Part shown: piece after piece, positions 1 to 36,977 of the stretch | Layout: every line of letters begins with the position of its first letter | How positions within the stretch are numbered: position 1 is the stretch's first letter | Assembly: GCA_965202665.1 (NCBI GenBank) | Contig: OZ241841.1 | Location: forward strand, 768,001 to 832,000 | Origin: Candidatus Spongiisociaceae bacterium | GTDB taxonomy: Bacteria; Actinomycetota; Acidimicrobiia; Spongiisociales; Spongiisociaceae | Length of the DNA stretch: 64,000 bases | Direction: 5' to 3' | Notes under the pieces: model-generated | What the model saw: the letters and a program-made list of their open reading frames with translations, nothing else | The model's database searches: none | What the model was told of the DNA's origin: nothing | Made by a program: the position numbers and the translations under genes

Positions 1-3000
1 GACGCGGTCGTCGGGGGTGAGGTTGAGGGTGATGTTGGTGGTGGCGTAGTTGGTGTTGGCGGGGATTCTGATATCGAACGGGGCCAGCGTTTGGTAGTCT
101 TCTCCGGCGGTGGCGGTTCCGTTGTTTACGGTTACTCGGATGGTTTTCTGAGCGGTTTGGGTGACGCCGGCCGAGAAGGCGGCTTTCACGGTAACATTTT
201 GGCGGGTTCCTTCGGCGGCTTGGGCGACATCCAGGGAGAGGGTTACGGCGCTTTCGTCGTCGACGAGGGTTAGGGTGTCTTCACCGACGGTGAAGGCGGT
301 CAGGGTGTCGTCGGGGTCGCCTCGTACGGTGATCGTTTCGGGGCTCTCAGGGTCATCGTCGTCGATGGCTTCTAGATCGAAGCGGGCGGTTCCTTGCGTT
401 TGGTAGGCGGGGATGGTAATGGAAGGGGGCGAGGTTACGTCCTTGTAGTCCGTGTCGGGTATGGCAGTGTCGCCGACTTTGGCTACTCCCAGGGGGACGA
501 TCACCGAGTGGGGCAGAGTGTTGGTACCCTGGTAGGCGGCTTTTACGACCACCGGAGTGGTGGCTGTTGTTTCGAATATTTGGGCGAGGTCGGCCCCGCC
601 GGGGGTTTGCAGGGTGATGGTTATTTCATCGGGGGCTTGGTCGTCGTCGGTGATGTTCAGGTTGGCTCCTATAACCGGCAGGGTGGATCCGCCCAGCGTC
701 AGGGTCCCGCCTTCGATGTGGATAGTTTCCGGGTCGGCCCCTTCCGACGCTCCCTCGGCGGTGTTGTCGTCGTTTACCTGCAAGGTTACCGTCGCGTGGC
801 CGCTGGTTTCCCCGGCGGAGATAGCGACGGCTAGGTCGTATCCGGCGGGCGGGGCGGGACTGGTGGGCAGGGTGATGCGGTAATCTTCCCCGGTTCCGAA
901 ACCGGTGGAGGCGGCGGCGGGGGCGGCGGTGCCGTTGGCGATGTTCACTCCTATGACGGCGCCTCCGGCGGGGGCTACCACGGGTATGGAGGCGGTTATG
1001 CGCAGGGTGGTGGTTCCGCTGTCCTCCGCGATGGCGGTCAGGGGGGTTCCGGTGTTGTTGGCCCAGCCCAGAGTCACGCCTTGGTCGACGATTTCCAACC
1101 GGGCGGCGGTAGCGGTCACCGCAGAGCCGTCTACCTGCGCGGTAGCGGTGAGGGAAACCCGTTCGGTGGATTCCCCTGTGCTGTCAGCGCGGGCGACAAT
1201 GCGGAAGGTGGCTGCGCCGCTGGTCCGTCCGGCGGGGATGTTCACCGTCAGCTGCCGGTTGGAAGGCAGGTTGGTGTACCAGTCGTTGCTGGTGCCGTGG
1301 GTGGCGGTGTCATCGGCGAGGGTGACCGTCACCGGAACAGCCGCAGTACGGGCGGAAGAGGCTACGTTGTCGAAGGCGGCGGTGACGGTCACAATGTAAT
1401 GGTTGGGTCTTTCCACCAGCAGATCGGGGGTAGCGCTGATGGTGAGGGCGGTGTCGGCGTCGGCGACCGCCAACACCGCGGAAGCAGCGGCGCCCAAAGC
1501 GGAGGTTCCGCTGATAATGATCGTCTCCCGCCCTTCGGTTATATCATCATGTTTCACAGTCAGCCCAGTCAGGGCCGTTCCGGCGGCAGCGCCGGTCGCT
1601 TGGGCGGGGATGGTCACGGTGTACGTTCCGCTGTTTTGATAGTCGGCGGGACTGACCGCCGTTCCGTCCCCCACGGTGAGCGTCACCGCGGTGGCGGTGG
1701 CGATTTCGGAGGAGGTGGTCCCGGTTTGGAAAGCGGCCGACACGGTAATCCCCGACCCAGTTCCGCCTTCCGCCGCCGCCGCGCTGGCGGTTAGGACTAT
1801 CACCGAGTCGTCGTCTTGAATAGTCAGCGAGGCGGGAGTAACCGACAGACCGGGGGTGGTTCCCCCCACTTGGATGGTTTCCCCCACCTCGGCGATAGCG
1901 TCATCGGTTATACCCAAACCGGTCAGAGCGGTGGAGGAACTGCTGACCGAGCCAGCCGGGATGGTCACCGTTATCTCACTGCCGGCCCCGGGAGCGGTGT
2001 AATCAGCCGCTTCCGTACCAGCCCCCGCCGCGAACGACAACGTTACGACGGTGGCGACCCCGATCTGGGAGGTGGTTCCCGCCAAAGAGGCGGTCACCCG
2101 GGCCGCTCTCCCGTCGCCGTCTTCTTCCAACGCGTCGGCGGTTACGTTCAGAGTTATACCGGAGTCGTTGTCGGTGATATCAAAAGCGGTGTCCACCACC
2201 GCCAGCACGCTCCCGCTCGCCACCGCCCCATCCACGGATATCGTCTCCGCCGCCCCCTCCGCCGCCCGGTCGTCGTTCACCGCCACCACAATATCCGCCC
2301 AACCGCTGACCCGCCCCGCGGGAATGGAAATCCCCATCCCGTAACCCGCCGGCGGGGAACCCTGCGGATAAGAAACCCGAAAATCCTCCCCCGCCCCGAA
2401 CATACTGTCATCATCCAAAGTGGCGGACCCGCCCGTCACGTTCACCCCCACCACCACCGGCGTACTCGACGCGACCGGGAGGGTGGCGGTTACCCGCACG
2501 GTGGTGGAACCGCTGTCCTCCCCCAACCCGGTCAACGCCGACCCACCGCTACTCACCGACAACTCAATGCCCCGATCCACCACGTTCACCACAGCCGACT
2601 CCACATCCACCGCCAAACCCCCCACCATAGCCGAACCGCTCACGGTCAAAGCCTCGGCCCCCTCGGCGACGTTGTCGTCGCGGGCGGTCAACTGGAACGT
2701 TCCGTTAGCCGACAACGACCCCGCCGGAATAGTAACCGTAAACTGGTTGCCCGTCTTATCCGTACAAGCATCCCCCGACGCCTGCGGACACGGCGCAGCC
2801 GCCAACGCCGCGCCCCCCGACGCGCCCGCCACCTGTACCGCCACATCCACCGCCTCCGTCAACACGGTACTGGAACCTTTGAAACGGGCGGTAACCGTAA
2901 TCGTCTGCGCCCCCGCGCCTTCCGCCACCAACGATGGAGACACCGACAAATCCACATCCACGTCATCATCCCCAATAGTCACCGTCGCCGCCGTAACCGC

Positions 3001-6000
3001 CCCCAACGAAGACGTCCCGTTCACCAAAAACGTTTCCGGGCCCTCCACGATCGTGTCATCAACGATTGTCAATCCGGTTAGCGTGGCCGGAACCAACGAA
3101 TAAGAAACAAGCCTATCAGGAGTCCCAGGGGGGGTCGCCATTGGGTCGCTGCCGTCGCCGTCATGGTCAACCTCTGTACCCGGAATGGTGAAAGAATTCG
3201 GCGACGACGGCGCATACGAGAAATCAGCCGCAACCGCCTTCCCCGCCCCCGGAGTCTCCACCGCCGTCGACAAAGCCACCACCACATCCGAACCTACCTC
3301 GTTGACCGTACCCGACCGGAAACTCCCCGACACCGACACCGAACCAGAACCGCCCTCCCAAATCACCGTCTGATCCCCATCAACATCCCCATCAGTATCC
3401 ACCTGCAAAGCAACCCGAGTATCGTATTCGTCCACAATACTGATAATCCCCGCAACAACAGTAAAACCCGCCGGCTCAGCCACCACCACCTCTATCGTCT
3501 CCACCGCCTCCGCCACCGGGCCATACCTATACACCTGCAAAGTGCTAAAAGCCGAAGCAGCCAACGTAGCAGACAAAGAACCAGCCGGAATAGACACCAA
3601 CACCTGACCTAAATTACCATTCCAACGCCAATCACAGCTCACTAACGGACACGGCCCAGTATAATCCAACGCCGTCCCCTCCCGCATCGTCACCCGCAAA
3701 TTGTTCAAACCGGCACTGTAAGCAGAAGCCGTCGAAGCAGTGAACACCCCACCAGACACACCCCCCAAATCAGCTCTAAAACCCACCTGATGAGTAGTAT
3801 AACTGAAACCACCAGGTAAGGGCTCCGTGTACCGATCAACCAAAGGAGACACCCGAATAAACCGATCCTGATCCGCAATCCCCAAACCAGCCGCCACCAC
3901 CCCATACCCAGCAACAGAACCAGTAAACCATATCATCTCCCGATTCTCAGTGATGGTATCCGACAGGGGCGTTATGGTCACATCCGCCGAACCACTCGTG
4001 CCCTGCGCGGGAATAGTAATCGTCGCCGTAGCCGAACTACGAGTGAAATCAGTGTTCAACAGCGCGTCGCCGCCCGACGCGCCCACCATCACCGTTACGT
4101 TCACCGGGGATGCGCCCACCGCCGCCGAAGCAGTAGCCGTTATCCGCACCGTCTGCGCACCGCCATCCTCTTCTACCTCGGTCAACGCGGCCGGGGTTTG
4201 CGCGGTATCAGTCAAAGTGAGCGTGATCGCCTTATCCGCGTCGCGGACCGTCATCGCCGTCCCCGTCACCTCCACCGCCGCCCCCCCCACCGCGGCTGAG
4301 CCTGAAATCGTCAGGCCTTCTTCGTCGTCGGCGGTGGAGTCCTCCCGGGCGGTCAACTGAAAAGAACCGCTCCCCAGCAACTGCCCGGCCGGGATAGTAA
4401 CCGTAAACTGATTGCTCGTTTTGTCGGTACACACATCATCCCCGGTCTGCGGACACACCGCCGACGACACCACCGCCCCACCCGACGACGCCGCCGCAAC
4501 AGTCACCGTCACAGCAGTATCCGCAGTCAACACCGAGCTGGTCCCCGCGAAACGGGCGGTAACCGTAATCGTCTGCGCCCCCGACCCCTCCGCTACCACC
4601 GCCGGGAACACCGACAACGAAATATCAGCATCATCATCGGCGATAACCAACTCCCCCGAAACGGGATGCCCGGCACCCAGACTGGAAGTACCGCCAAACG
4701 CTATCGTCTCCGGACCCTCCACAATCGAATCATCCACCACCGACAAACCCGCCAACGTCCCCGAAGAACTCTTCAACCCAGACACACCCACCACCGGAGG
4801 CGTAGCCATAAGATCCTCCGCCACCTTAACAGGAATGGTAAACGACAGCGGCGACGGCGGAGCGTAATCAAAATCGGCGTCGCCCGCCTCCCCCGCCTCC
4901 GGTTCCGTATCTTCTTCGATAGTAAGAGTGGCCGTGACCGGCGTCGTGTGACGGGTAGCGGTGACTCCGGAGGGCCATCCCGCCCATACTTCCACTCCTG
5001 TGCCGGAAGCACCCTCCGCTATTTCGGTCTGGTTGCCCATAGTGTTGCCGTCGGTGTCCACCCTGAACACCACCCGCGAATCCGTCACGTCCCGCACCTT
5101 AATCCAGGCTCTTTCCTGAGTGAACCCCGCTGGAAGCGTCCTCGCTCCCAGCCGTTTAATCGCCTCATCCGGATCCGCTGTGTTGTTTACCTCGACGGAA
5201 TGTGATATGTCTTGCGAAGCGGTGAGTGAACCAGACGGAATATTAAAATATTTCCTCAAATAAAACAAATAACTTTCCCAGTCATATACGTGATATCTAG
5301 CAATAGTTCTAGTATTTTGGCTATTGCCAGAACCTTCAGGGGACCACGCCTGCAAATTCATATTGGAACTGTAAGTAGAGGACGTGGAAGGAGTGAACAC
5401 GCCGCCGGAGGTGCCTCCTAAAGTAGCGGTGCCATCCGAAACAACCGAGCTACGGCGGGAAGCCCACTCGTCAATCGTGTCCGGGTTCAAAGTGAACTTG
5501 ATAACCCGGTCTTGGTCGATGATCTGTAGATCGGCTGGTACTACCGCATACCCCGTAGCGGCGCCCGCGAAGCGGATAGTTTCGTGATCTTCAGTGACCC
5601 TGTCCTGCACGGGGGTGATGGTTACGTCGGCGGTTCCGCTGGTGTCATTCGCCGCGATGGTCACCGTTGCCTCCCCGGCGCTGCGTAGATAGTCCCCTAG
5701 CGTTCCCAAGGCGGCGGTGCCGCCTGTGGCGCCTACGGTGACTGTTACGTCGGTGTCGGCGGTGGGGGCCGTCCCGACGGTGGCCACCACCCGCACCGTC
5801 TGCGCGCCGCCGTCTTCTTCCACTGCGGTTAGCGCGGCGGGGGTTTGGGCGGTGTCAGTGAAACTCAACGTAATCGCCCGCCCCGGATCCCGCATCGACA
5901 TTTCGGTTCCGGTGACCGTAGCTGTTGCGCCGCCGACGGTGGCGGAGCCGGTTACCGTCAGTTTCTCATCATCGTCGGCGGTGGTGTCGTCGCGGGCGGT

Positions 6001-9000
6001 GAGCTGGAAAGTAGCGGCGCCGCTGGTTTCCCCGGCGGGGATGGTCACGGTCAGCTGGCTGCTGGTCAAACCGGTAACGCACACATCAGTGGTGGAGGAG
6101 GGGCAGGCGGCCAGGGTGGCACCGTTGCTGGACGCGGAAGCGACCGTCACCGTCACGTCGGTGGCGGCGGTCAGGGCGGAGGTGGTTCCCGCGAAAGCGG
6201 CGGTAACCGTTATCGTCTGCGTACCCGAGCCTTCCGCTACTGAGGCGGGGAACACTGACAGCGTGATGTCGTCGTCGTCGTCGACGATGGTTATAGTAGC
6301 GGGGGTGGCGTCGCCTAACGGGGAAGAACCGCTAATGGTAATCGTCTCCGGCCCTTCCACAATCGCGTCGTCGGTGACCGTCAACCCGGTTAGGGTGGCG
6401 GTGGCTGAGGGGGTGGCGTTGTTAGCGGGGAAAGTGATGGTATTGGGCGTGGCCGGGGTGTAGGTGAAGTCGGCGGCGACGGCCTTCCCGGCTCCGGCCG
6501 GGGTGGGGGCGGCGGCTGATAGGGTCACGTTGGTGGCGGAACTAATGACTGAGGTGGTGGCGTTGTAGTAAGCGGCGGAAACGGTCACACCGGAACCGGT
6601 AGCGCCTTCCGCCAGCGTGGTCTGGGTTCCCGTCGCGCTGTCAGTGTCCACGGTTATCGCTATCTGGTTGGAGTCTTGGATGGTGATCGTCTCCCTGACC
6701 GCGGTCCAACCGGAGGGAACGGCGGGACGGAAGTAAAATATCTGATCCGGTTCCGCCACCGTGTCCTTCAAAACAGCAACCACCGGAACCGCGGTGGGAG
6801 CGTACACTATATTCACATTACCGGAAAGGGCCCCCGCGTTTATAGTCACCTCCAGCGGGTCGTCCGCCTCGCCGTGCTCATGGAAGATATCGTCGGTAGT
6901 GCTAGTCTGGCCGCCCACGGTGGCCGTCCCCGCATCAACCCGCACCCGCATCCCCAAATTAGAACTGTAAGTAGAAGAGGTGGAGGGGGTGAACACCCCG
7001 CCCGACACCCCGCCCAAAACAGCCGTCATACCCCGGAAAAACTTGAGAATGCCATTATACTGGTTAGTCAACGCCTCCCCCTCCCTAGGCTCCCGCACCA
7101 CCAGATCCCCCTCCGCCGCCATCACCTTCACCGCCCGATCCTGATCCTGTATCACCAAATCATTCGCCACCACCGCATACCCAGTGGCTGAACCGGTGAA
7201 CCGGATAATCTCCAAGTCTTCGGTGATGGTATCCGACGCGGGGGTGATAGTCACATCCGCCGTCCCGCTGGTATCGTTGGCGGCGATCGTCACCGACACC
7301 CTATCCGCACTCGACGAATAATCCCCCGCCCCAGCCGTAGTACCCTCCGCCCCCACCACCACATCCACCACCACCGCCGACGTCGGCGCCACCGGCGCAG
7401 AAGCCACCACCCGAATCACTTTAGCCCCCCCATCCTCCCCCACATCCACCAACGGAACCGGCGTAGAAGCAGTGTCAGTAAAACTCAACGCGATGGACCG
7501 GCCCGGATCGTAAATCGTCAACTCCGTCCCCTCCACCACCGCCGCCTCCCCCCCGATAGCGGCCGCGCCGGATACGGTCAGGTCCTCGTCGTTGTCCGCC
7601 GCGTTGTCGCTACGGGCGGTCAGCATAAACGACCCAGACGCCTCAACGCTCCCCGCCGGGATGCTGATAGTGAACTGGTTGTTGGCCTGGTCGGTGCAAG
7701 CATCCTCAGAAGTAGCCGGACACGCCGCCGCCAACGTAGCCCCCAGTTGCGATCCCGCTATGGTGGCCGTCACCGCCGTCGCCGCGGTCAACGCGGAAGT
7801 TTCTCCCCGGAAACGGGCGGTCACCCCGATCCGCTGAGCGGCGGCCTGCTCCAACACCTCCGCCGGGGAAACCAGCACATCTATCACCGCGTCGTCGTCG
7901 ACGATAGCCAACGAACCCGACACCGCAACCCCGGACGCGTCCGTTCCGCCCAACGTCAACCGCTCGGGTCCTTCCACGCTGGCGTCGTTTGTGATAGTAA
8001 GACCAGGAATAGTGCCGCTTACTGAGGTGGAACCAGCCGGGATGGTCAACAACACCGGAGCAGGCGACGGATAAGAAAAATCAGCCGTCCCCGCACTATC
8101 AGCCCCCACCGACGTTAAAGACACCACCAGCGGGTCGGTCAACTCCGACGACCCCGCCGGCAAAAAGGCTTCCACGCCCACTGTTCCGTCTGCGTCCTCC
8201 GACACGCTCCCCCGCAACCCAGGACGGCTGTCATCATCCGTCACCGTCATCAACTGAGGATCCGCCCCGAAACCCGCCGGAAGGCTGGAAATGGTCATCT
8301 GATAAGTCTCATCCCCCTCCGCCACGTCATCCACGCAACTCACCAACTGCACCGTCGCCGTCCCCGACGTGGAACCAGCCGCGATGGTTATGAACTCCCA
8401 AGCGGTGGGCATGGTGTCCACCGCGAACCCATCCGACGAATAATCCTGATTATAAGTAGCCGTACCATCCACCGTCCGCACCCGCCCCCGCACATTACTA
8501 CCCAACGTCGAGGAGGTAGCCGCGGTGAACACCCCCTCCGCCGACAACCCACCCAGGCGGCCGGTCACCGTCCTGGAAAACGGAGCGGAAGTCATACACT
8601 GGCTGCGGGTGGCCCAGCCCGACTGCGGATCCCCACCCTCCCCGTACGACGCCTCCCCCTCCCCCACCCCTATCCCCACCGTTCGGTCCTGGTCGGTGAT
8701 TTCCAAATCAGCCCCCCGCACCGCATACCCCCCCGCCGAACCCCCGACGCGGATCGTCTCGTTCTCTTCTGATATGGTGTCCTCCAACGGGGTGACCGTC
8801 ACATCCACCGACCCGCTCGTCCCTCCCGACGGAATAGTGATCGTCGCCGGATCCGACTTTGCGTAATCCCCTCCCGTGCAAACCTCGTTCTGCCCCGACC
8901 CCGCGCACGACTGCGGATCAGCCGAACCCCCCGCCGCGCCCACCGTCACCGACACCACCGTCTCCGCCGACACCGCCGCCGGAGCAGTAGCCGTCACCCG

Positions 9001-12000
9001 CACCACCCGCGCCCCCCCGTCCTCCCCCACCGCCGTCAACGCCACAGGAGTTTGCGCGGTGTCGGTCAAAGACAAATCAATCGCCTGCCCCGGATCAAAC
9101 ACGCTAATCTCCGCGGACGCCACCGCCACCGCCGCGCCCCCCACCGACGCCGTCCCCGACAACACCAGCCCCTCTCCCCCCTCCGCGTTGCCGTCGTCCC
9201 GGGCGGTCAGCCGCAACGTCGCCGACCCGCTGGTGGCGCCCGCCGGGATGGACACCGTGAACTGATTATTGGTCTTGTCGGAACACACGTCTCCACTGGT
9301 CTGCGGACACACCGCCGACGACAACACCGCCCCACCCGACGCCGCGCTCGCCAACGTCACCGTCACATCAGTCGCCGCCGTCAAAACGGAACTGCTCCCC
9401 CTAAAAGCCGCCCTCACCGTGATCGCCTGCTCCCCGGCTCCTTCCAGCACCGACGACTCCGACACCGTCAAATCAATATCCGCATCATCATCCACAATCG
9501 TCACCGAACTATCCGCCGCCGACACCCCCGCCACCCCCGTAACCACCCCCGACAAAACAAACGTCTCCGGACCCTCCACCACACCATCATCCACCACCGC
9601 CAACCCCCCCAACGCCGCCGACCCCGACACACTATTAGCCGCCACCGAAACCGTGTTCGGGGAAGCGGGCGCATACGTGAAATCAACCGCCGACGCCACC
9701 CCCGCCCCCGGCGCACCCAACCCCGCAGACAAAACAACCGAAGTCGCCGACCCGATCGTAGACGAACCCGCCGAAAACGCCGCCACCCCCACCGCCCCCG
9801 ACAACGACTCCCCCTCCCGCAACGGCTGCACCCCAGTTGTTCCCCCATCAGCGTCTATCGACAGATTAAGCGCCGAATCCGGATCTGTGATATACACGTT
9901 GGGATTCGGCGACAAACTATAACCCGCTACCTGGCTGTTCCCCCACTCAAAACGGAAATCCTCCGTACCCTCCGCCTTATTATCAGCATAAAAGTTGAAA
10001 GGCCACGTCACCGACCCCGACACCGAACCAGCCGCGATGGAAATATCCCTAAAAGAAAAGCCAATCTGATAAAAATCATCTACATTGCCTTGATCGTCCT
10101 CCTGCGTCGCCGACTGGTCCCGAAAATACAACCGCGAAGTAAAACTACTGCTATGAGTGCTGGACGTCGACGGAACAAACACATTATCAACCATCTGCCC
10201 AAACCGGGCCGTCAACCGCATATCATTACGGGTATTGCCCGACGCAGGCTCCGCTACCGTCGACGGCGACACGCTCAAATCCACATACCGATCCCCATCA
10301 TTAATAGTCAACATCGCCGGAGCGACCACCCACTGCGAATTGGAGCGACCCCAAAACACCACCGACTCCCCATCCTCCGTCACCGTATCATCATACGTAG
10401 TGATCGTCACATCCCCCACCGTCGCCATCGAATCACTCGGCTCCATACGAACAGTCACCTCCCCCGTGCTCCGCCCGAAATCCCCCGTGCACACCCGGCT
10501 CTGACCCGAACCCGAACACGACCCCAACGTAGCCGAACCCCCCACCGAACCCGGCGTCACCCACACCACCCTCGAATACCGCGACTCCCACACCGACTGC
10601 CACGACCCGGCCATAGTAGCCCGCACCCGCACCGCCTTCCCAACCCCCTCCCCCACCGATGACAACCCCGCCTCCCCGGTCGCCGTCTCATGCAACGACA
10701 ACCCAATCACCTTCGGATGAGCCGCGTCGTAAATCTGAAAACTCGTACTCGACACATCCACCGACCTGCCCCCCACCGACGCCGTCCCCGATAACGTTAC
10801 CCCCTCCACCCCCTCCGACGCGCCCCCCTCATCCCGCGCCGTCATCGCAACCGTCGCCGACCCGCTCAACTCCCCCGCCGGGATCGTCACCGAAAACGAA
10901 TTCCCCGCATCAGTACAAACATCCCCGCTCGTCTGCGGACACGCCCCCGACGACACCACCGCCCCATTCGTCGTCGACGACGCAAAACTCACATTCACCA
11001 CCGTATCCGACGGGATCACCGAACGAACCGCGTCCCTAAACCTCGCCGTCACCGTCACCGGCTGCGGAATATCACTCTCCGCGAACGCCGAAAAAGAACT
11101 ATTAGACGACGACACCGACAACGCAATGTTCGTATCATCATCCACAATCGTCACCGGCGCCCCCGACACATAACCACGATCCACCGTCACATAAAACACC
11201 TCCGGTGGCTCCGCCACTCGATCCCCCACCTCCGACAAAGCCTGAAACCTAACATCCTCAACCGAATCCGACGCAACCCACGGCCTAATACCCACCAAAC
11301 GCCGATTCGCCAACACCGCATTATTAAAATGCGCAAACTCGTAATCGCGTCTCTCATCCGTCACCCCCGACACCACCCCCTTCGCCGTACCATCCACCGC
11401 CCTCACCTGCACATCCCCCACACTAGCAGAAGTCAAATTAGCCGTAACAGGCACAAACACCCCACTCGACGTATCCCCCCAACGCAACGACACCGTACCC
11501 GACTGACCCACCCCCGCCATCCCCTCACTAACCTCACTAACAGAATACGCCACCCCCAACCTACGATCCCGATCCGCAATACTCAACCCCACCTCAGTAT
11601 TCGCATACGAAAACCCACTAACTTTAGCCCAATCATAGAGTTTTATCTTAAACGACTCATAATACTCCCGCACCGTATCATCCACCATCCTCAACGTAAA
11701 ATCAATCTGTTTATGAGTGTCTCCACTACCCCAATTAAACCACGAATTGTCTGTGATATGATCATTCCAATTACTAGCAGATGTACAACAGTTACCATGC
11801 AAACCAAACTGATAATCCACATGACGAGTAGCACCACCAGCCGTATTAAAAAACGCATCACCACCTTTATGCGCCGCAGGCGAAATATTCACATGAAGCC
11901 GCAACTGCAAATCCCCATCATTCTCAGCAACAGACGAAACCGGATTATTACTCCGATCCGTAATACTAAACGAAACAGTCGGCACCTGCCCCACCACCCC

Positions 12001-20612: not shown

Positions 20613-20679
20613 CCTCCGAGAATAGCCCCCGGCCGGAATTATTCCGAACGGCTACAGCTGTACATGGCCAGTAGGTTGG

Positions 20680-21627
20680 TTACAGTCTGGAGGTTGGTGG
20701 TTTGCCTCCGAGGCTGTAGCGGGGTCGGTGGTTATTGTAGTAGTGGAGCCAGTGGCGGAGGGCTTGGTTTCGGGTTTGGTTGTCGGGCCAGGGTTGGGAG
20801 TTGGCCCATTCGCGTTTGAGGGTTTGGTTGTATCGCTCCACTTTGCCGTTCCGCTGGGGATGATACGGTCTGATCGTGATATGACGGATGTCGTGCTGGG
20901 CGAGCAGGGAAGCGAACGCTCGGCTGCGGGTGTAGCTCCAGTGGTTGTCGGTCATGATCTCCGCGATGTGGGTTATGCCTAGTTGGCGGAAGTGGTGGAG
21001 GGCGCGGGCGGTGAACGCGGCGACGGTGGTTCCTTTCTCGTCTGATAGCGTTTCGGAGTAGGCGAGGCGGGTGTAGTCGTCCACGATGGAGTGCACAAAG
21101 GTCCATCCCGCTCCGCTGGCGGGGGCGTTGCCCCGGCCGTGTACCTTCCATCCCCCGCCGGGCGGTATGGAAGAAAGCTTCTTAACGTCCATATGCAGCA
21201 ACTCACCAGGCCGTTCCCGTTCATACCGCACCACCGGCCCGGGAGGGGTTTTGAGCGGTTCGCCGGTCAGCAGGTCGCATTCCCACAGACGCAACACTCC
21301 GCGGCGGCGGAGGATGCGGCTGATCGTCCGCTCCGGCACCCCCGTAAACGCCGACAACCGAGCGGGCCCCGCCCGCAACCGCCGCCGCGCCCGCAGCACC
21401 AGCTCTTCCACCGCCGGGCTGGTACGCATAGGGGAACAACGCGGCCGAGACGACCGGTCCTCCAAACCGGCCTCGCCTTCCTCCCGGTAACGGCGCACCC
21501 ACTTGGACACGCACTGCCGAGACAGGCCCATTCCCCGAGCCACCCGCGCCACCGGCTCCCCTTCTTCTATCACCCGCAACACCATCCCCAAACGTCCCAA
21601 AGGCGACGACCTCGCGTTACCATGCAT
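20680..21627 (-). CDS. IS481-family DDE transposase
   Basis: MHGNA start, HTH, RYERERPGELLHMDVKKL, VDDYTRLAYSE, MTDN and PQRNGKVERYN motifs. Confidence 0.95.
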   Translation of the reverse strand: MHGNARSSPLGRLGMVLRVIEEGEPVARVARGMGLSRQCVSKWVRRYREEGEAGLEDRSSRPRCSPMRTSPAVEELVLRARRRLRAGPARLSAFTGVPERTISRILRRRGVLRLWECDLLTGEPLKTPPGPVVRYERERPGELLHMDVKKLSSIPPGGGWKVHGRGNAPASGAGWTFVHSIVDDYTRLAYSETLSDEKGTTVAAFTARALHHFRQLGITHIAEIMTDNHWSYTRSRAFASLLAQHDIRHITIRPYHPQRNGKVERYNQTLKREWANSQPWPDNQTRNQALRHWLHYYNNHRPRYSLGGKPPTSRL

Positions 21628-21630
21628 CCC

Positions 21631-21690
21631 TGAAGACCTCCTCCCGTGCTATAGGGTGCTTTCACTCCCCATAACACCAGGAGGTCTTCA
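21631..21690 (-). promoter_or_regulatory. 12-bp perfect inverted repeat that could sequester the transposase RBS
   Basis: TGAAGACCTCCT (21631-21642) / AGGAGGTCTTCA (21679-21690), immediately upstream of the transposase ATG. Confidence 0.65.
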
Positions 21691-22171
21691 CTTATGCAAC
21701 AACCAAACCGTCGCCAACGTCCTGGCCAAGTACAACTAGCGTGCACAGGCAGAAAGGCCCTACCAGATCCAAGTTGGGTAGAATCTCCCCCAAGGTGCCC
21801 TCTGGATTCCGGGCAGTTTCAGAACACATTTCACAAACATTTCAATTTCATCCGCAACTAGCAGACCAGCAGATAGGCTTTTGTCAGCAAGTAATCACGG
21901 TACCGGTATAGGATTGCCTGCTGGCATTAACCCTGTCAGACTATCATTATCAGGTCTGTGTTCGTTAGCAGAAGAGAAGCTGCTGATTACAGGCTTATCC
22001 CCTGGTATGTTCCTGTAACGACCGTGTTCTTGCCTAGATAGTCTACCTGACCAACCAGCCGAAACAAACAAGCCTGTGCTGTCCAGACTGGTCAGGCCAT
22101 ATAGATTACCGGTCAGGCCTGTGGGGTCAAATAAGACTAACCATCAGGCATAAGATGTTACTGGTCAGACA

Positions 22172-22930
22172 TCAGGACGCACGCAAGATGTTATCAAAAG
22201 CCTGCCCTCCCTGCTCCATAACCTGTTTGGCATCCTGTACTATCTGTACGGCATACTGGATTGTCTGCTCTTCCTGTTGGTTCACCTGCGTTTCCAGGTC
22301 GATGGCAAACCGGACAGCCTGGTCAGTGTCCAGAACATTCTGCCATTCCTGCTCCGTGACCCGGATAGTCTGTCCTACCTGTTGCTGGTATTTTGCCCTG
22401 ACCAGCAGGACTGCCGTCAGCACTGCCTGTCCTGTATCTGCTACCTCCAGCCTGGCGGCCTCTATACCACTAATAGCATCATCCGCCCCATCATATATTT
22501 TCTTTTTTGCCTCTAAGTACTGTATGATTGCTTGCCAGGCTAACTGCCTAACCTGCTTTTTCTGCCGTCTGCCCTTAGCAATCTGCCACATCTGGTAAGC
22601 ACCCTGTAATGCCTGGACACCAGACCGCAGGTTTGGGATACCCTCTGTCCTAACATTCTGGATAGCTTGACGGAACACCTGAATGCTAACCTGATGATGT
22701 TGAATGGCAGTCAGATAGGTTCTGACAGCCTGTCTGATGGTTTCCAGAACATCCAGAATACTGGTCTGTTCTGACCATCCACCATCTACTGGTTGTATCC
22801 AGTTGCTGATGGCAGGAACAGACGGGCTTGCACTGTCATCAGGACTGACCAAGTCATACAGCCTATCCAGGCCTGCAATGTCTGACGGACTGTCGCCAAG
22901 CCACTGGGCAGGGTGCTGCTGGTCTGACAT
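22172..22930 (-). CDS. Orphan Gln-rich helical protein (252 aa)
   Basis: Long ORF, TGATG-coupled to the upstream ORF; no family recognised. Confidence 0.7.
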   Translation of the reverse strand: MSDQQHPAQWLGDSPSDIAGLDRLYDLVSPDDSASPSVPAISNWIQPVDGGWSEQTSILDVLETIRQAVRTYLTAIQHHQVSIQVFRQAIQNVRTEGIPNLRSGVQALQGAYQMWQIAKGRRQKKQVRQLAWQAIIQYLEAKKKIYDGADDAISGIEAARLEVADTGQAVLTAVLLVRAKYQQQVGQTIRVTEQEWQNVLDTDQAVRFAIDLETQVNQQEEQTIQYAVQIVQDAKQVMEQGGQAFDNILRAS

Positions 22931-23211
22931 CAGCGTTCCTGCTCTGTGACCTGGATAGCAGACCTGTATTTCCTATAAATTTCTATAATACCCTGCCGGT
23001 AATCATCCTGGGCTATCAGGTCAGTCCAGTTCCTGTCTATGTTCAGCATCATCGCCCGCACCTCCTTATAGAACAGGCACCTGTCATCCAGAGGAACCGT
23101 TTGCCACCCTGAACAGAGAGCCTGATGGAAATCATCCTCTGCCAGCATAACCTGTATGGCATCTATCAGTTCAGCAGGCATATCCTGGTTATGCTCTGTG
23201 GTGGTGAACAT
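22930..23211 (-). CDS. Orphan 93-aa protein
   Basis: GGAGG 5 nt before the ATG (MFTTTEHN...); stop overlaps the next start. Confidence 0.65.
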   Translation of the reverse strand: MFTTTEHNQDMPAELIDAIQVMLAEDDFHQALCSGWQTVPLDDRCLFYKEVRAMMLNIDRNWTDLIAQDDYRQGIIEIYRKYRSAIQVTEQER

Positions 23212-23474
23212 ATGTTCCTCCATTGTGTTTCTGATGGGTCTGATGACCAGCCTGTTCTGTTCAGTATAGACTGGTCTGTGGAAATGCCAATCCGTCAGGC
23301 AGGACAAGCCTGGATATTAGACAGACCAGCAGACCAGAGAAGATCCGATTAATGGAGGGCCCACCTCAAACTAGCGTAACCACCCAACCCCTCACCCCCC
23401 TCAAACTACGAAGAGTCTGTAAAAGTGGTAACATAAGGAAGGCCGCTGACTGCGGAATGGGAAAGGAGGTTCCT

Positions 23475-24395
23475 ATGGCCAAGGATTATCAACTGGGCCG
23501 CCTGGAGAAGGTGGACCTGCGCGAGGTGTGGGCGGACGAGGCCGGGGACTTCACGCCGTGGCTGGCCGGTGAGGAAAATATCGCCCTGCTCTCCGATGCC
23601 ATAGGCCTGGACTTGGAGGTCGAAGAAACCGAGAAGAGAGTCGGCTCCTTTGCGGCGGACATCGTCTGCAGGGAGTGGGGAACCGAACATCGGGTTCTGA
23701 TCGAAAATCAGTTTGGGGAGACCGACCACGATCATCTTGGCAAACTTATAACTTATGCCGCAGGGTTGGATGCCGCTACTGTCATCTGGATAGCCAGCGA
23801 CCTGCGCGAGGAGCACCGAACCGCTTTGGACTGGTTGAACGACAACATCAGAGAAGAGTTTGGGTTTTTGGGAATTAAAATAGAACTATATCGTATTGGG
23901 GACTCCTTGCCTGCTCCGAAATTTTATATTATCTCGAAACCAAACAAATGGGATATGGTTACTAAACAGTTACCAAACCTGTATACAATAAGACTGGAAT
24001 ATTGGACGCAATTTTGTGAATTAGTGAAAAAAAGAGGTGGTCCGGTCAAGCCAGCTGAACCTAGTAAGACATGGATAAGACATTCAGTTCTACCCGGTTT
24101 TAAATTAGATATGGGAAATAATAGTATCAAAAAAACGATAAATATCAATGTAAGTCTGACAAAAACAGACTATAAAGAAGTATTTAAAGTGCTGGAGAAA
24201 GACAAAGAGCAAATTAAACAGGAGGCCGGGGAAAAATTTGAATGGCGTCAAAGAACTGGTCAAATTTTTCTTAGGAAATATTCGTGTGATATAAGGGATA
24301 GTGAAAGTTGGCCGGAGCAACATGATTGGCTTTATGAAAAACTGCAGTTGTTCCATAAAGTGTTCACGCCGCGAATTGAGAAAATTTATGACTAA
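23475..24395 (+). CDS. PD-(D/E)XK (NucS/EndoMS-like) nuclease domain + DUF4268 protein
   Basis: LGRLEKVDLREVWADEAGDFTPWL..ADI..VLIENQFGETDHDHLGKLITYAAG; C-terminal YWTQF...WPEQHDWL; AAGGAGG RBS. Confidence 0.85.
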   Translation: MAKDYQLGRLEKVDLREVWADEAGDFTPWLAGEENIALLSDAIGLDLEVEETEKRVGSFAADIVCREWGTEHRVLIENQFGETDHDHLGKLITYAAGLDAATVIWIASDLREEHRTALDWLNDNIREEFGFLGIKIELYRIGDSLPAPKFYIISKPNKWDMVTKQLPNLYTIRLEYWTQFCELVKKRGGPVKPAEPSKTWIRHSVLPGFKLDMGNNSIKKTININVSLTKTDYKEVFKVLEKDKEQIKQEAGEKFEWRQRTGQIFLRKYSCDIRDSESWPEQHDWLYEKLQLFHKVFTPRIEKIYD

Positions 24396-33058: not shown

Positions 33059-33517
33059 ATGCAAGTAGCCATCGGGGCGGACCATGCCGGCGTTTCACTA
33101 AAAAGCTTCCTAGTGGAACATCTGGAGGGACTGGGTTATCAGGTGGCCGACCTGGGAACCCATTCCGAGCAACCGGTGGACTACCCGGATTCGGCGGCGG
33201 CGGTGGGGGAGGCGGTGCGCTCCGGGGCGGCGGAGCGGGGCATCGCCGTGTGCGGGTCGGGAGCGGGGACGGCCATCGCCGCCAACAAACTGCCCGGTAT
33301 CCGGGCGGCGGTGGCCCACGACCACTACACCGCCCATCAGATGGTGGAACACGACGATGTCAACCTGCTGTGCCTGGGGGCCAGGGTGGTGGGCCAAAGC
33401 TTGGCGGCCGAGCTGGCCGAAACGTTCCTGACCGCCGTATTCTCCGGCGAAGAACGCCACCTGCGCCGCCTGCAAAAAATCCACGCCCTGGAAAAAACGA
33501 AACCCGTTGCCGACTAA
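33059..33517 (+). CDS. rpiB: Ribose-5-phosphate isomerase B
   Basis: GADHAG, DYPD, CGSGAG and ANKLPGIRAA motifs. Confidence 0.95.
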   Translation: MQVAIGADHAGVSLKSFLVEHLEGLGYQVADLGTHSEQPVDYPDSAAAVGEAVRSGAAERGIAVCGSGAGTAIAANKLPGIRAAVAHDHYTAHQMVEHDDVNLLCLGARVVGQSLAAELAETFLTAVFSGEERHLRRLQKIHALEKTKPVAD

Positions 33518-33869
33518 TCAACCTCCGGCCGTATCAGGCAAAGCAAATCGAAAAGGGCGTTATCTACCTTGACTCTGTCCGACGCTGAAAGGCGGCCCAA
33601 GGTTGTTACGTAACGGTTCTGGTTGACGGAACGGATCTGCTCGCACTGCAGGTAGCTGGTTTCCTCGAGCCCGTTTTCCTCGCTTGGCTCCACCTCAATA
33701 TACGAGTCTAAATCGCGGGGCGTAGTCGTAAAGGGCGCCACAACCACATTGGGAACATCCAGCCCGGCGGGGGACCCAGAACCAAAGCTGGGCGGTAACT
33801 AGCGGGGTCCGCCGGGTACTCCGGGTCCCTCGTAACAAAATCCACCAACCCTATTTCGTTGACCGGCAT
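33514..33869 (-). pseudogene. PemK/MazF toxin copy C (4-nt deletion frameshift near 33760)
   Basis: MPVNEIGLVDFVTRDPEYPADPASYRPALVLGPPPG, then in another frame DVPNVVVAPFTTT...LLCLIRPEVD*; near-identical to 34945-35295. Confidence 0.8.
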
Positions 33870-34199
33870 CCGGCGAAGCAAATCGCGAATGGTGTTATCT
33901 ACCTTGACTCTGTCCGACGCTGAAAGGTAGCCCAAGACGTTGATGTGAGGGTCCTTGTTAACGGAGCGAATCTGCTCGCACTGCAGGTAGCTGATTTCCT
34001 TAAGGCCGTTCTCCTTGTTTGGTTCCACTTCAACATACGAGCGGAGGTCGCGGGGCGTTGTCGTAAAGGGGCCCACAATCACGTTGGGACCCGCTGGCCC
34101 TCTCAGCGGGGGACCCAGGACCAAAGCTGGGCGGAGATCAGCAGGTTCCGCCGGGTACTCCGGACCAAAATCCACCGATAATATTACATTGGTGATCAT
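33708..34199 (-). CDS. PemK/MazF toxin copy B, fused in frame (no stop) to the start of copy C
   Basis: MITNVILSVDFGPEYPAEPADLRPALVL..PFTTT..QCEQIRSV..DLLRR|MPVNEIG. Confidence 0.75.
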   Translation of the reverse strand: MITNVILSVDFGPEYPAEPADLRPALVLGPPLRGPAGPNVIVGPFTTTPRDLRSYVEVEPNKENGLKEISYLQCEQIRSVNKDPHINVLGYLSASDRVKVDNTIRDLLRRMPVNEIGLVDFVTRDPEYPADPASYRPALVLGPPPGWMFPMWLWRPLRLRPAI

Positions 34200-34210
34200 A
34201 GCTCGCCACG

Positions 34211-34276
34211 TTAGCAAGCAACCCTTGCCAAACCCCCTGGACCAAAATCCACCAACCATATTTCGTTGACCGGCAT
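34211..34276 (-). pseudogene. 21-aa MazF stub
   Basis: Reads MPVNEIWLVDFGPGGLARVAC*, at the position equivalent to the copy A start (offset 1019). Confidence 0.7.
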
Positions 34277-34319
34277 ATCGCTATTCCTGCGACAATGCTT
34301 CGGCTACAAATACCTTTCC

Positions 34320-34850
34320 CTATTCCCGTTCGGGGCCAACCTCTCCCGGGGCGGCGTCCTGCGACATTACCTTGGCTACCAAATCCTTCCATTCATACGG
34401 ATCTACGTACCAAGGGTTCGGTTTTCTCCATTCCAACACAGCTCCGGCCGACCATCCATATCCAAACTGCTCCGTTGCTAAAGCCTCTACCGCTCTGGCT
34501 ACTGCCCTGTAGGCCCGGACGGCTCGGAGGGCCAGCTCCGGGTTCCCTATAATTTCGGCTATCTCATCGAAGCCCGCCAAGGCCTTTTGGAGGGGACCCA
34601 AATCGTAGATGACATACCCGCCCAAATCGCCTTGGGACTCCGCCGTCTGGTTGAATTCAGCCGCCGCCCGGCGAACTTCGTCCAGATCTAAACTCCGGGC
34701 CGCGTCGCGGGCCGACGGGAAGTCGAAGGCTTTGATGGCCGCCAGGACCGCCTCGGCGAGTTCGGCCCCTTCCTCCTCACCGCCCAGCTCCCGTAGCAGG
34801 TTGTGGACATCCGCCACCTGTTGCTCGCGACTCTTCATCAAGGGAAGCAT
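34320..34850 (-). CDS. Orphan 176-aa MazF partner, copy 2
   Basis: 169/176 identical to 35339-35869; AAGGAG upstream. Confidence 0.8.
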   Translation of the reverse strand: MLPLMKSREQQVADVHNLLRELGGEEEGAELAEAVLAAIKAFDFPSARDAARSLDLDEVRRAAAEFNQTAESQGDLGGYVIYDLGPLQKALAGFDEIAEIIGNPELALRAVRAYRAVARAVEALATEQFGYGWSAGAVLEWRKPNPWYVDPYEWKDLVAKVMSQDAAPGEVGPERE

Positions 34851-34944
34851 AATACGCTCCTTTCGTCGTTGCGATCTCGTCGAGCGGATTCGCCGGGATT
34901 GGCGCCGCCCCCGTTTCCAACATCAAAACTTTTGGGGGAGACAA

Positions 34945-35295
34945 CTAATCAACTCCCGGCCGCCTCAGGCAAAGCAAATCGAGAATTGCTTTATCCACCT
35001 TGACTCTGTCCGACGCTGAAAGGCGGCCCAAGGTTGTTACGTAACGGTTCTGGTTGACGGAGCGGATCTGCTCGCACTGCAGGTAGCTGATTTCCTCAAG
35101 CCCGTTTTCCTCGCTTGGCTCCACCTCAATATACGAGTCCAAGTCGCGGGGCGTAGTCGTAAAGGGCGCCACAACCACGTTGGGAACATCCACCCAACCC
35201 GGCCGGGGGCCAAGAACCAAAGCTGGGCGGTAACCAGCGGGTTCCGCCGGGTACCCCGGATCAAAATCCACCAACCAGATTTCGTTGACCGGCAT
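34945..35295 (-). CDS. PemK/MazF-family endoribonuclease toxin, intact copy A
   Basis: EIWLVDFDP...EPAGYRPALVL..VVVAPFTT..ENGL..SYLQCEQIRSV..LGRL; the catalytic-type Arg and Thr positions are retained. Confidence 0.88.
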   Translation of the reverse strand: MPVNEIWLVDFDPGYPAEPAGYRPALVLGPRPGWVDVPNVVVAPFTTTPRDLDSYIEVEPSEENGLEEISYLQCEQIRSVNQNRYVTTLGRLSASDRVKVDKAILDLLCLRRPGVD

Positions 35296-35338
35296 ATCGC
35301 TATTCCTGCGACAATGCTTCGGCTACAAATACCTTTCC

Positions 35339-35869
35339 CTATTCCCGTTCGGGGCCAACCTCTCCCGGGGCGGCGTCCTGCGACATTACCTTGGCTACCA
35401 AATCCTTCCATTCATACGGATCTACGTACCAAGGGTTCGGTTTTCTCCATTCCAACACAGCTCCGGCCGACCATTTATATCCAAACTGCTCCGTTGCTAA
35501 AGCCTCTACTTCTATGGCTACTGCGCTGTAGGCCCGGACGGCTCGGAGGGCCAGCTCCGGGTTCCCTATGATCTCGGCTATCTCATCGAAGCCCGCCAAG
35601 GCCTTTTGGAGGGGACCCAAATCGTAGATGACATACCCGCCCAAATCGCCTTGGGACTCCGCCGTCTGGTTGAATTCAGCCGCCGCCCGGCGTACTTCGT
35701 CCAGATCGAATCTCTCGGCCGCGTCGCGGGCCGACGGGAAGTCGAAGGCTTTGATGGCCGCCAGGACCGCCTCGGCGAGTTCGGCCCCTTCCTCCTCACC
35801 GCCCAGCTCCCGTAGCAGGTTGTGGACATCCGCCACCTGTTGCTCGCGACTCTTCATCAAGGGAAGCAT
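35339..35869 (-). CDS. Orphan 176-aa MazF partner (putative non-canonical antitoxin), copy 1
   Basis: Sits directly upstream of mazF in the same orientation; acidic and helical. Confidence 0.8.
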   Translation of the reverse strand: MLPLMKSREQQVADVHNLLRELGGEEEGAELAEAVLAAIKAFDFPSARDAAERFDLDEVRRAAAEFNQTAESQGDLGGYVIYDLGPLQKALAGFDEIAEIIGNPELALRAVRAYSAVAIEVEALATEQFGYKWSAGAVLEWRKPNPWYVDPYEWKDLVAKVMSQDAAPGEVGPERE

Positions 35870-35997: not shown

Positions 35998-36977
35998 CCG
36001 GCCCGAGGGCGACTGCTCCGGAGGGCGGCGAAAGGGGGTAGATTTGGGGCGTTCGGGAGGAGAAGCCCGCAATGTTCTAATCGTAGAACAGTAGGCGGAG
36101 GGGCGGCAGGTCGTAAACATCCGCCCGCTGCCACCCCCCCCCCCGTCCGCTACCCGGCGGGAATCCCGCCCCTCGGACCCGGCGGATGGTCGTCATCCCC
36201 CTGGATTCGGCGACTCGGCGGGATGATGTCGCAATCCCCTATCGGAGTAAAGGAATCCCTCCGGCCTGGACGGGCGGGCGGGTTATCCTCCCACCGCCGT
36301 TTGTCCTGCGACCGAACCGAACCCCGGCGGGAATCCGGGAATCATCCCCCGGCGGGATGACCGCCGCCAAGTCCTGCGACCCGCCGCCGTTCGTCATTCG
36401 TGGATTCCGAACCGCCCGCCCGGTCGGTCGCCGTCATCCCAAACAGGCTACGCAGTTCGTCCCGAACCGCCGCCTGCGTCTCCGCCAACTCGGCGGGCGA
36501 CAGGTTAGCCGCCGCCCCTTCCCGGATAGCCGCCCATCCGTCCGTAGTCGGATAATGGCCGCCCACTTCCTGGATGATGGCATTTAATGCCGCCGCCAGT
36601 TCGGCGGGCGACATCCCGCAGTTCGGGTCGTTAATCGGGTTCGTCATCATTCCCCCTTTTCCTAGTTATCGGAATACCCTACCCCCGAATTAAACAGTAT
36701 GGTGGATGGTCTAACAAAGCCTGATTTTCAGACACCTCTGATGATTACTTACAACCACAGGCTGTACCGTGGAATAGATAAGCACCAGGCACCAGAGCAG
36801 ACAGCACAGGATCGTCAGTGTCAGTATCAGGGTCATACGCGGGATCTGCTTTGGCCTGCTTTGTTGTGTGGTTCTGGTTCAGGTCCCGCCCTGCTGTCCT
36901 GCTGGATCCGGCCCGGGGGCGCCTGCTCCGGAGGGTGGCGAAAGGGGGTAGATTTGGGGCGTTCGGGAGGAGGAGCC
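35998..36977 (+). repeat. 70-bp imperfect direct repeat (35998-36067 / 36908-36977, 66/70) flanking an ~840-bp insert
   Basis: CCGGCCCG(A/G)GGGCG(A/C)CTGCTCCGGAGGG(C/T)GGCGAAAGGGGGTAGATTTGGGGCGTTCGGGAGGAG(A/G)AGCC occurs twice. Confidence 0.9.
36342..36650 (-). CDS. Orphan 102-aa protein with internal SPAELA repeat
   Basis: AAGGGG RBS; lies inside the repeat-flanked insert. Confidence 0.55.
   Translation of the reverse strand: MMTNPINDPNCGMSPAELAAALNAIIQEVGGHYPTTDGWAAIREGAAANLSPAELAETQAAVRDELRSLFGMTATDRAGGSESTNDERRRVAGLGGGHPAGG

Follow-up and report, generated by a model that had tools for sequence, protein, structure and literature searches.

The window analysed here, 64,000 nucleotides from a Candidatus Spongiisociaceae bacterium (contig OZ241841.1, positions 768,001 to 832,000), is carried by a closed genome of 2.77 Mb with a GC content of 0.64 (G000). 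At window positions 21734-23377 it contains an island that is poor in CpG and rich in CAG and CTG, flanked, as originally predicted, on the left by an insertion sequence (IS) of the IS481 family with its transposase and on the right by a DUF4268 gene. Two open reading frames (ORFs) on the minus strand occupy the island, ORF93 (22930..23211) and ORF252 (22172..22930). The island is a stranded two-gene remnant, and the layout of its genes is suggestive of the small accessory genes that phages and plasmids carry in coupled form.

ORF93 is preceded by the Shine-Dalgarno sequence GGAGG (23217..23221, minus strand), 5 nt before its ATG, and is joined to ORF252 by TGATG coupling. Upstream of both genes lies a sigma70-like site (TTGGCA-16-TATACT, 23263..23290, minus strand) with 10 of 12 matches, which is not significant alone as shuffles yield 1.9 such sites. 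ORF252 sits in a stop-free run of 266 codons, equalled in 4 of 1000 third-order Markov simulations, and has no Pfam, PHROG, PADLOC or fold match. Its predicted richness in glutamine was borne out (15% Gln).

The original prediction described the two genes as orphans with a Shine-Dalgarno sequence and TGATG coupling; both signals are present, while strict orphan status had to be given up, since ORF252 has three distant homologs. Exhaustive searching found P0004 (38% identity, E 2e-24) on a 15.7-kb contig and P0008 on a 3.6-kb contig, and a profile search found P0009 (38%) on a 15.0-kb contig. ORF252 is 31-38% identical to these unnamed homologs, and all four members of the family are Gln-rich (14-19%). 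Three of the five non-self matches from the exhaustive search (P0005-P0007) turned out to be eukaryotic and repetitive, and were discarded as low-complexity matches. A confident AlphaFold model of ORF252 (predicted local distance difference test score 83) has three helices of ~60 residues, for which Foldseek returned nothing at E 0.001 or better from the PDB and BFVD, and the top ESM Atlas scores, 0.81 and 0.79, fell under the lead threshold. For ORF93, no homolog was found in the five genomes searched, a search made without a positive control. Against PHROGs none of 14 proteins reached E <0.04 and no island ORF matched.

Base composition of the island

The island has a GC content of 0.50 and 35 CG dinucleotides, giving an observed-to-expected ratio (o/e) of 0.34, in agreement with the predicted third of expectation at ~50% GC. 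CAG and CTG (together CWG) occur 152 times, an o/e of 2.98, at the top of the predicted two- to threefold excess. Across the genome, CpG o/e in 1.6-kb windows averages 1.03 (standard deviation 0.09), and a sliding-window scan returned a value of 0.40 or below in one of 6,918 windows, the island being the minimum. Low GC does not explain the deficit, because the 371 windows with 45-55% GC have a median CpG o/e of 1.01. The foreign core (21743..23343, no strand) has a GC content of 0.50, a CpG o/e of 0.32 and a CWG o/e of 3.05.

The deficit is similar across both ORFs and the non-coding parts (o/e 0.13-0.36). All NCG words are depleted (TCG 0.16, GCG 0.21, ACG 0.33 and CCG 0.58), GpC is normal (0.98) and TpG/CpA stands at 1.39; among the NTG words, CTG alone is clearly raised (2.98). 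CpG is thus under-represented in every flanking context and independently of coding, the pattern expected of DNA eroded by a CG methyltransferase. The original prediction named the deamination of CCG to CTG and CGG to CAG; the loss extends beyond CCG and CGG to all four NCG contexts.

Correction for codon and amino-acid usage left ORF252 far below a CpG ratio near 1. Its 17 CG compare with 45±5 expected when amino acids are fixed and GC is matched (none of 1000 simulations as low), and with 30±3 when its own codons are shuffled (none of 2000 as low). The same deficit after correction was seen in ORF93 and in an SLH-domain gene of another island of this style in G000. When nine island ORFs were pooled, third-position C:T was 20:142 where G followed and 215:180 where another base did; arginine was encoded by 39 AGR and 21 CGN codons. 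The corrected deficits therefore indicate that the CpG effect acts at the DNA level, on genes that stayed intact.

Edges of the island and its chromosomal slot

The 2.77-Mb genome has just two copies of the sequence AACTAGCGT, both in the window (21734 and 23369), and the original prediction took them as the edges of the island. The left copy (21734..21742, plus strand) consists of the last base of the IS481 end, a 6-bp NCTAGN target and GT, a reading that follows from the other full IS481 copies: all four carry matching 6-bp NCTAGN flanks. The copy beside the island (20659..21734, minus strand; transposase 20680-21627) has flanks that differ, TACAGC (left) and ACTAGC (right), and is likely rearranged. 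The right copy of AACTAGCGT (23369..23377, plus strand) lies inside a degenerate ISL3-family end (23344..23425, no strand), which is identical at 68 of 85 positions to a copy elsewhere in the genome (alignment score 84, best shuffle 48) and can be aligned across the repeat on both sides. The true right boundary of foreign composition is at ~23343, the start of the ISL3-end remnant and 25 bp before the right repeat. Both predicted repeats are present, but the right one does not mark the compositional edge.

AACTAGCGT is therefore probably neither an attachment (att) site nor a target-site duplication, given that its left copy is IS481 end plus target, its right copy lies inside the ISL3-end remnant and no empty site was found. 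A site-specific integrative element with att repeats was rejected on related grounds: no empty site with a single core, a right repeat off the compositional edge and no integrase among the island ORFs. An IS481 composite transposon was rejected as well, there being one IS481 copy only, with mismatched flanks. AACTAGCGT may possibly have served as microhomology during capture; even with four CTAG sites in this region, chance would seldom produce a shared 9-mer.

In the congener G001, a 1,352-bp Fic gene (SoFic, E 7.5e-51) occupies the same slot, which is flanked by an aminotransferase gene and by the DUF4268 gene. In the dominant strain of sequencing run X4, position 20651 is joined to 23444 through ~1.33 kb of other sequence (length from the record table). 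No empty site with a single AACTAGCGT was seen in G001 or in this strain; the alternative alleles hold a gene of ~1.35 kb instead, the one in the congener being Fic/SoFic, and the proposal that the repeats mark integration edges fell with this result. IS481, the island and the ISL3 end have thus replaced a defence candidate gene (SoFic) in a variable slot.

This variable defence slot lies upstream of the dap genes (window 20636-24395; G001 C1 2469123-2471400, L134). It contains SoFic and PDC-S11 in the congener and IS481, the island and PDC-S11 here, and in three genomes of another genus it holds neither SoFic nor PDC-S11. The DUF4268 gene (23475..24395, plus strand) is the PDC-S11 match (PADLOC, E 1.6e-104); it has normal CpG and is also present in the congener, and its allele in run X4 is divergent around 23597-23767.

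The island was also found in four other runs, where the listed contig pieces differ by 0-3 bases over 230-1376 nt. The runs with the island come from six studies, one of which may be the source of this DNA; some are labelled as sponge or marine metagenomes and others by coded organism names. No RNA data set was among the runs listed, which is uninformative on expression. In run X4, one contig crosses the IS481-island junction and another the right junction, both with zero differences. The near-identical pieces and spanned junctions therefore give no sign of ongoing mutation or mis-assembly.

Related islands, spacers and CpG-rich fragments

Sliding windows and a Markov scan identified seven loci of this style in G000 (124.6k, 789.7k, which is the island studied here, 804.7k, 1752.2k, 1784.6-1786.3k, 1795.1k and 2252.4k), with CpG o/e of 0.08-0.45 and CWG o/e of 2.4-3.8. 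They share no sequence similarity, except that two of them have a 130-bp promoter region in common (78%). Homology to IS481 or ISL3 is found within 25 bp of five of the seven, compared with 3% of random 1-kb windows. One island contains a complete gene for a secreted SLH-domain protein, and an ORF of another has variants of 91% and 85% in other samples, one of them on an 11.9-kb contig. The shared promoter (G000 C1 1752068-1752196 and 1786098-1786226; TGGACA-17-TATAAT/TATAAA) has a TGACCTGCG motif ahead of it, possibly a conserved regulatory site of the donor family. In G001 no CpG-poor island was found in 10 regions or in 30 of 37 pattern-hit loci, a sample of that genome; a 200-bp CpG-poor window flagged there proved to be a low-GC gene.

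Four-base palindromes are avoided in the islands. Relative to expectation from 3-mers, and with both-strand counts halved, TGCA occurs 3 times against 41, CATG 2 against 25, GATC 8 against 33 and AGCT 4 against 22. This is the restriction-avoidance pattern of mobile DNA.

The locus at 804.7k also lies within the window (36693..36907, no strand; CpG 0.36, CWG 3.2). It is joined to a CpG-rich segment (36070-36690, CpG 1.23), and both lie between 56-bp direct repeats (36007 and 36917). The resulting 910-bp unit (36007-36972), whose repeats have 2 mismatches and whose CpG-rich part is a string of ORFs, has the appearance of an insertion, either integrated or with a duplicated target. Locally, it is the strongest candidate for a genuinely att-bounded member of this element family.

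The host has a type I-G CRISPR array of 61 repeats and 60 spacers (G000 C1 1613945-1618334; L105 8900-13400). Eight of the 60 spacers are free of CG, compared with 1.7 in shuffles, of which 1 in 2000 reached 8, and four have an island-like score, compared with 0.3-0.4% of host 36-mers. The array of the congener shows no such excess (3 of 161 CG-free, none island-like). For several spacers, apparent protospacers are present on contigs from sponge and marine runs; among the matches listed there was no contig target for spacers 5, 17, 26, 45-47 and 53. The protospacer of spacer 59 is exact and is followed by GAA (TTC on the other strand); this one exact protospacer fits TTC, which we take to be the likely type I-G protospacer-adjacent motif (PAM). 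TTC is not depleted in the islands (1.05), and PAM depletion was rejected on that basis. In other strains the array holds different spacers, some of them CAG/CTG-rich.

CpG-rich look-alikes of the islands were found beside two of them, alone at 2242k and in G001. These sister fragments are series of short, coupled ORFs with CpG of 1.2-1.5 and CWG of 0.4-0.6, and their CxG words mirror those of the islands, with middle bases A.07, C.43, G.43 and T.07 in the sister fragments and A.43, C.07, G.07 and T.43 in the islands. Their proteins contain 12.9% Arg and 0.9% Gln (325 residues), compared with 5.3% Arg and 8.6% Gln in island proteins (1,124 residues). Random conversion of CG to TG or CA in four sister fragments brought their 4-mer spectrum closer to that of the islands: the correlation rose from 0.005 to 0.69-0.73, against a ceiling of 0.79, suggesting that the islands descend from such fragments. 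Methylation of CCG alone was rejected, as conversion restricted to CCG fitted more poorly (0.32-0.48).

The direction of change could be read from two alignments. In the promoter shared by two islands, the sole alignable CpG-poor pair, 7 of 8 changed CG positions are C>T or G>A, in line with the expected bias although the numbers are small, and the GC control changed in 2 of 22 counts. A gene of an SLH cassette located within one island was aligned with three CpG-rich paralogues from G001, which are not independent. Of 49 CG at identical residues, 19 are kept, 15 have become TG or CA, 13 AG and 2 other, with no change from TG/CA to CG; 32 of 37 were kept in the GC control.

Among 29 genomes, homologs of this SLH cassette were confined to the two that belong to this genus. 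In G001, tandem secreted SLH cassettes with a genus-restricted C-terminal domain (C1 788600-790600, L017, and 1978000-1978800, L014) lie in CpG-rich, mid-GC DNA beside an IS481 end, and the copy at 1978k stands between two similar genes with, by eye, a J-domain-like N-terminus.

Origin of the islands and the loss of CpG

We think it likely that an invading mobile element was the source of the islands. Less certain is what caused the CpG loss: we favour deamination, and its chief rival is selection against CG. Taking origin and cause together, we lean towards debris of a phage or plasmid that was CpG-methylated and deaminated and became stranded between IS ends. The original prediction of a foreign phage- or plasmid-like donor with strong CpG loss is largely borne out by the composition, the seven loci, the CpG-free spacers and the corrected deficit.

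On the deamination account, a phage or plasmid lineage would have invaded this host repeatedly, with spacers recording the encounters. A CG-specific C5-methyltransferase, an enzyme that we infer and that was probably the donor's own, would have shielded its DNA at CG-containing restriction sites. Long-term deamination of 5-methylcytosine would then have turned CG into TG or CA under purifying selection on the proteins, shifting arginine to AGR codons and CCG/CGG to CTG/CAG. CTG and CAG would dominate if the starting DNA was rich in CCG and CGG and the other products, TGCA and CATG, were avoided; palindrome avoidance therefore helps to explain why CTG/CAG is the visible product of decay. Capture would have been by IS-associated recombination and not by integration at AACTAGCGT. 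A plausible extension, which we hold tentatively, is that two recombining lineages of an undescribed phage or plasmid family of this sponge-associated genus were involved, one CpG-rich and one CpG-eroded with its own CG-specific methyltransferase.

Several results weigh against methylated phage or plasmid debris. Neither a donor genome nor a donor methyltransferase was found. No relative was found in IMG/VR, GTDB contigs, JGI metagenomes, 400 genomes of the class, INPHARED or PLSDB; the queries were ORF252 or its alignment (IMG/VR, GTDB contigs and the class genomes), the D110 alignment, the SLH protein E250, and spacer and promoter patterns (IMG/VR and JGI metagenomes). The homologs hoped for from viral and plasmid databases (IMG/VR, INPHARED and PLSDB) thus did not appear, and island DNA had no relative in 60 related genomes. 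The spacer and promoter patterns led to four loci of ordinary composition, with the match limited to 17-20 nt. The islands contain no phage hallmark or PHROG-family gene, and none of 50 C5-methyltransferase loci of the family lies in CpG-poor DNA, the lowest whole-locus CpG being 0.97. The CpG-free spacers have no protospacer in the islands (best match 19 of 21, at chance level), so the link between the two is compositional, and the contig that matches CG-free spacer 4 is not CpG-poor, with 5 CG in 60 flanking bases. Ordinary host DNA under simulated decay approached the islands nearly as well as the sister fragments did (0.65-0.70), and decay is therefore supported more than sister ancestry. 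In the SLH cassette, changes of CG to AG were about as frequent as changes to TG/CA (13 and 15) in a segment with CpG of 0.95 and GC of 0.40, and at four-fold sites not after C, T was no higher before G (0.26 versus 0.28, n=61). The AG changes and the missing gain of T are compatible with selection against CG.

That selection is the strongest competitor, though we consider it unlikely. It keeps the phage or plasmid origin, but the force that removed CpG would be a host defence able to cut or sense CG words, acting through many CG-containing restriction sites or through a modification-dependent nuclease, and the donor would not have been methylated at CG. The avoidance of non-CG palindromes proves word-level selection in island DNA, CG-to-AG changes rival transitions in the SLH-cassette alignments, T is not gained before G at the four-fold sites, and two defence candidates, PDC-S11 and SoFic, are neighbouring genes. 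However, the host chromosome itself has a CpG o/e of 1.03, and CpG-rich invader fragments and spacers persist in the same host. Nor does selection readily account for loss in all NCG contexts, non-palindromic ones included, for the undepleted TTC, or for a 4-mer spectrum that transition-only decay largely reproduces.

Chromosome pieces of another CpG-methylating bacterium of the same habitat, with an enzyme like M.SssI or M.MpeI, could also have arrived by transformation or transduction. The complete SLH-domain secreted-protein gene, of cellular type, and the lack of phage hallmark genes in the islands would suit such a donor, which nevertheless seems improbable in view of the short coupled ORF strings without database matches, the repeated CRISPR acquisition of this style, the confinement of SLH-cassette homologs to the two genomes of the genus and the ORF252 and D110 families, which occur in no GTDB genome. 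The two host C5-methyltransferase genes, each beside a probable restriction gene by ORF layout, were rejected as the cause (local CpG 1.13).

Local hypermutation in this chromosome, which the original prediction had offered as an alternative, is largely refuted and very improbable. A process like repeat-induced point mutation acting on DNA inserted near IS ends would accord with the five of seven loci that abut IS ends and with the direct joining of CpG-poor and CpG-rich segments at two loci; against it, the genome holds no CpG-rich parent copy, the adjoining IS481 and ISL3 DNA is normal in CpG, the ORFs are intact (with the loss in ORF252 mostly synonymous), near-identical copies occur in four other runs (0-3 differences) and the free homologs are just as rich in Gln. 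CpG-poor, CAG/CTG-rich DNA is typical of animal genomes, and the runs with the island include sponge metagenomes, yet sponge DNA depleted by an animal DNA methyltransferase and then inserted or mis-assembled is hardly credible, given the prokaryotic traits (Shine-Dalgarno sequence, TGATG coupling, SLH gene, palindrome avoidance and CRISPR spacers) and the run X4 contigs that span both junctions without differences.

CG-specific methylation with genome-wide erosion of CpG is documented in bacteria mainly for Mollicutes. Mycoplasma penetrans is described as the clear bacterial case tying a CpG methyltransferase to CpG loss, CpG methylation being otherwise not prevalent in bacteria, in the consulted part of PMC11282364. 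As with M.MpeI of Mycoplasma penetrans and M.SssI of Spiroplasma, CG is lost here in all contexts, with TG/CA apparently gained; in contrast to the Mollicutes, the signature lies in scattered foreign fragments and spacers of a CpG-rich, 64%-GC chromosome, and the enzyme is putative. Phages offer a precedent for viral dinucleotide methylation against restriction: GpC-specific C5-methyltransferases, those of TET-encoding phages among them, methylate genome-wide and protect from restriction, and M.SssI is the sole CpG-specific prokaryotic enzyme named in the sections of PMC8256090 consulted. Like M.CviPI, these enzymes target GpC, which is normal in the island, and the same sections describe no CpG erosion for them. 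The consulted text of PMC11954522 holds nothing on CpG. In a literature search whose coverage left out most subscription journals, neither this element nor any actinobacterial phage with eroded CpG came up.

The islands resemble IS-associated phage or plasmid remnants in defence slots, being short atypical ORF strings beside IS481 or ISL3, here with SoFic replaced. Ordinary remnants differ mainly by a shift in GC, whereas in the islands the CpG/CWG signature is vertebrate-like and mirror-image CpG-rich pieces occur alongside. Together with the spacers, the fragments point to an invader with vertebrate-level CpG loss in a CpG-rich host, beside CpG-rich look-alikes. If the two-lineage extension were true, a vertebrate-like methylation signature would have arisen on a bacterial mobile element, shifting its proteins from Arg-rich to Gln-rich; nature would then have run an experiment on what CpG methylation costs in mutations, and a CG-specific enzyme could be obtained from outside Mollicutes. 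Retrieval of the donor would allow a direct test of decay against anti-CpG selection and would lead to a new CG methyltransferase or a CG-sensing defence.

Other regions of unusual composition were noted. At G000 C1 2664000-2670000 lies foreign DNA of 41% GC with mild CpG depletion (0.53-0.56) and no CAG/CTG excess, which therefore points to a different donor from that of the islands. Window positions 1-11500 are taken up by a large region of low-complexity surface-protein sequence, where CpG is raised (up to 1.6) and GpC is low. An SLH match a short way upstream of the window belongs to a frame of 4,559 residues; the host has 96 SLH-domain matches, and many SLH frames of 1,200-12,700 residues. 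The lower-GC region at 33500-35500 encodes repeated peptide motifs (ORFs 33514-33747 and 33708-34259), which we presume to be MazF/PemK-like.

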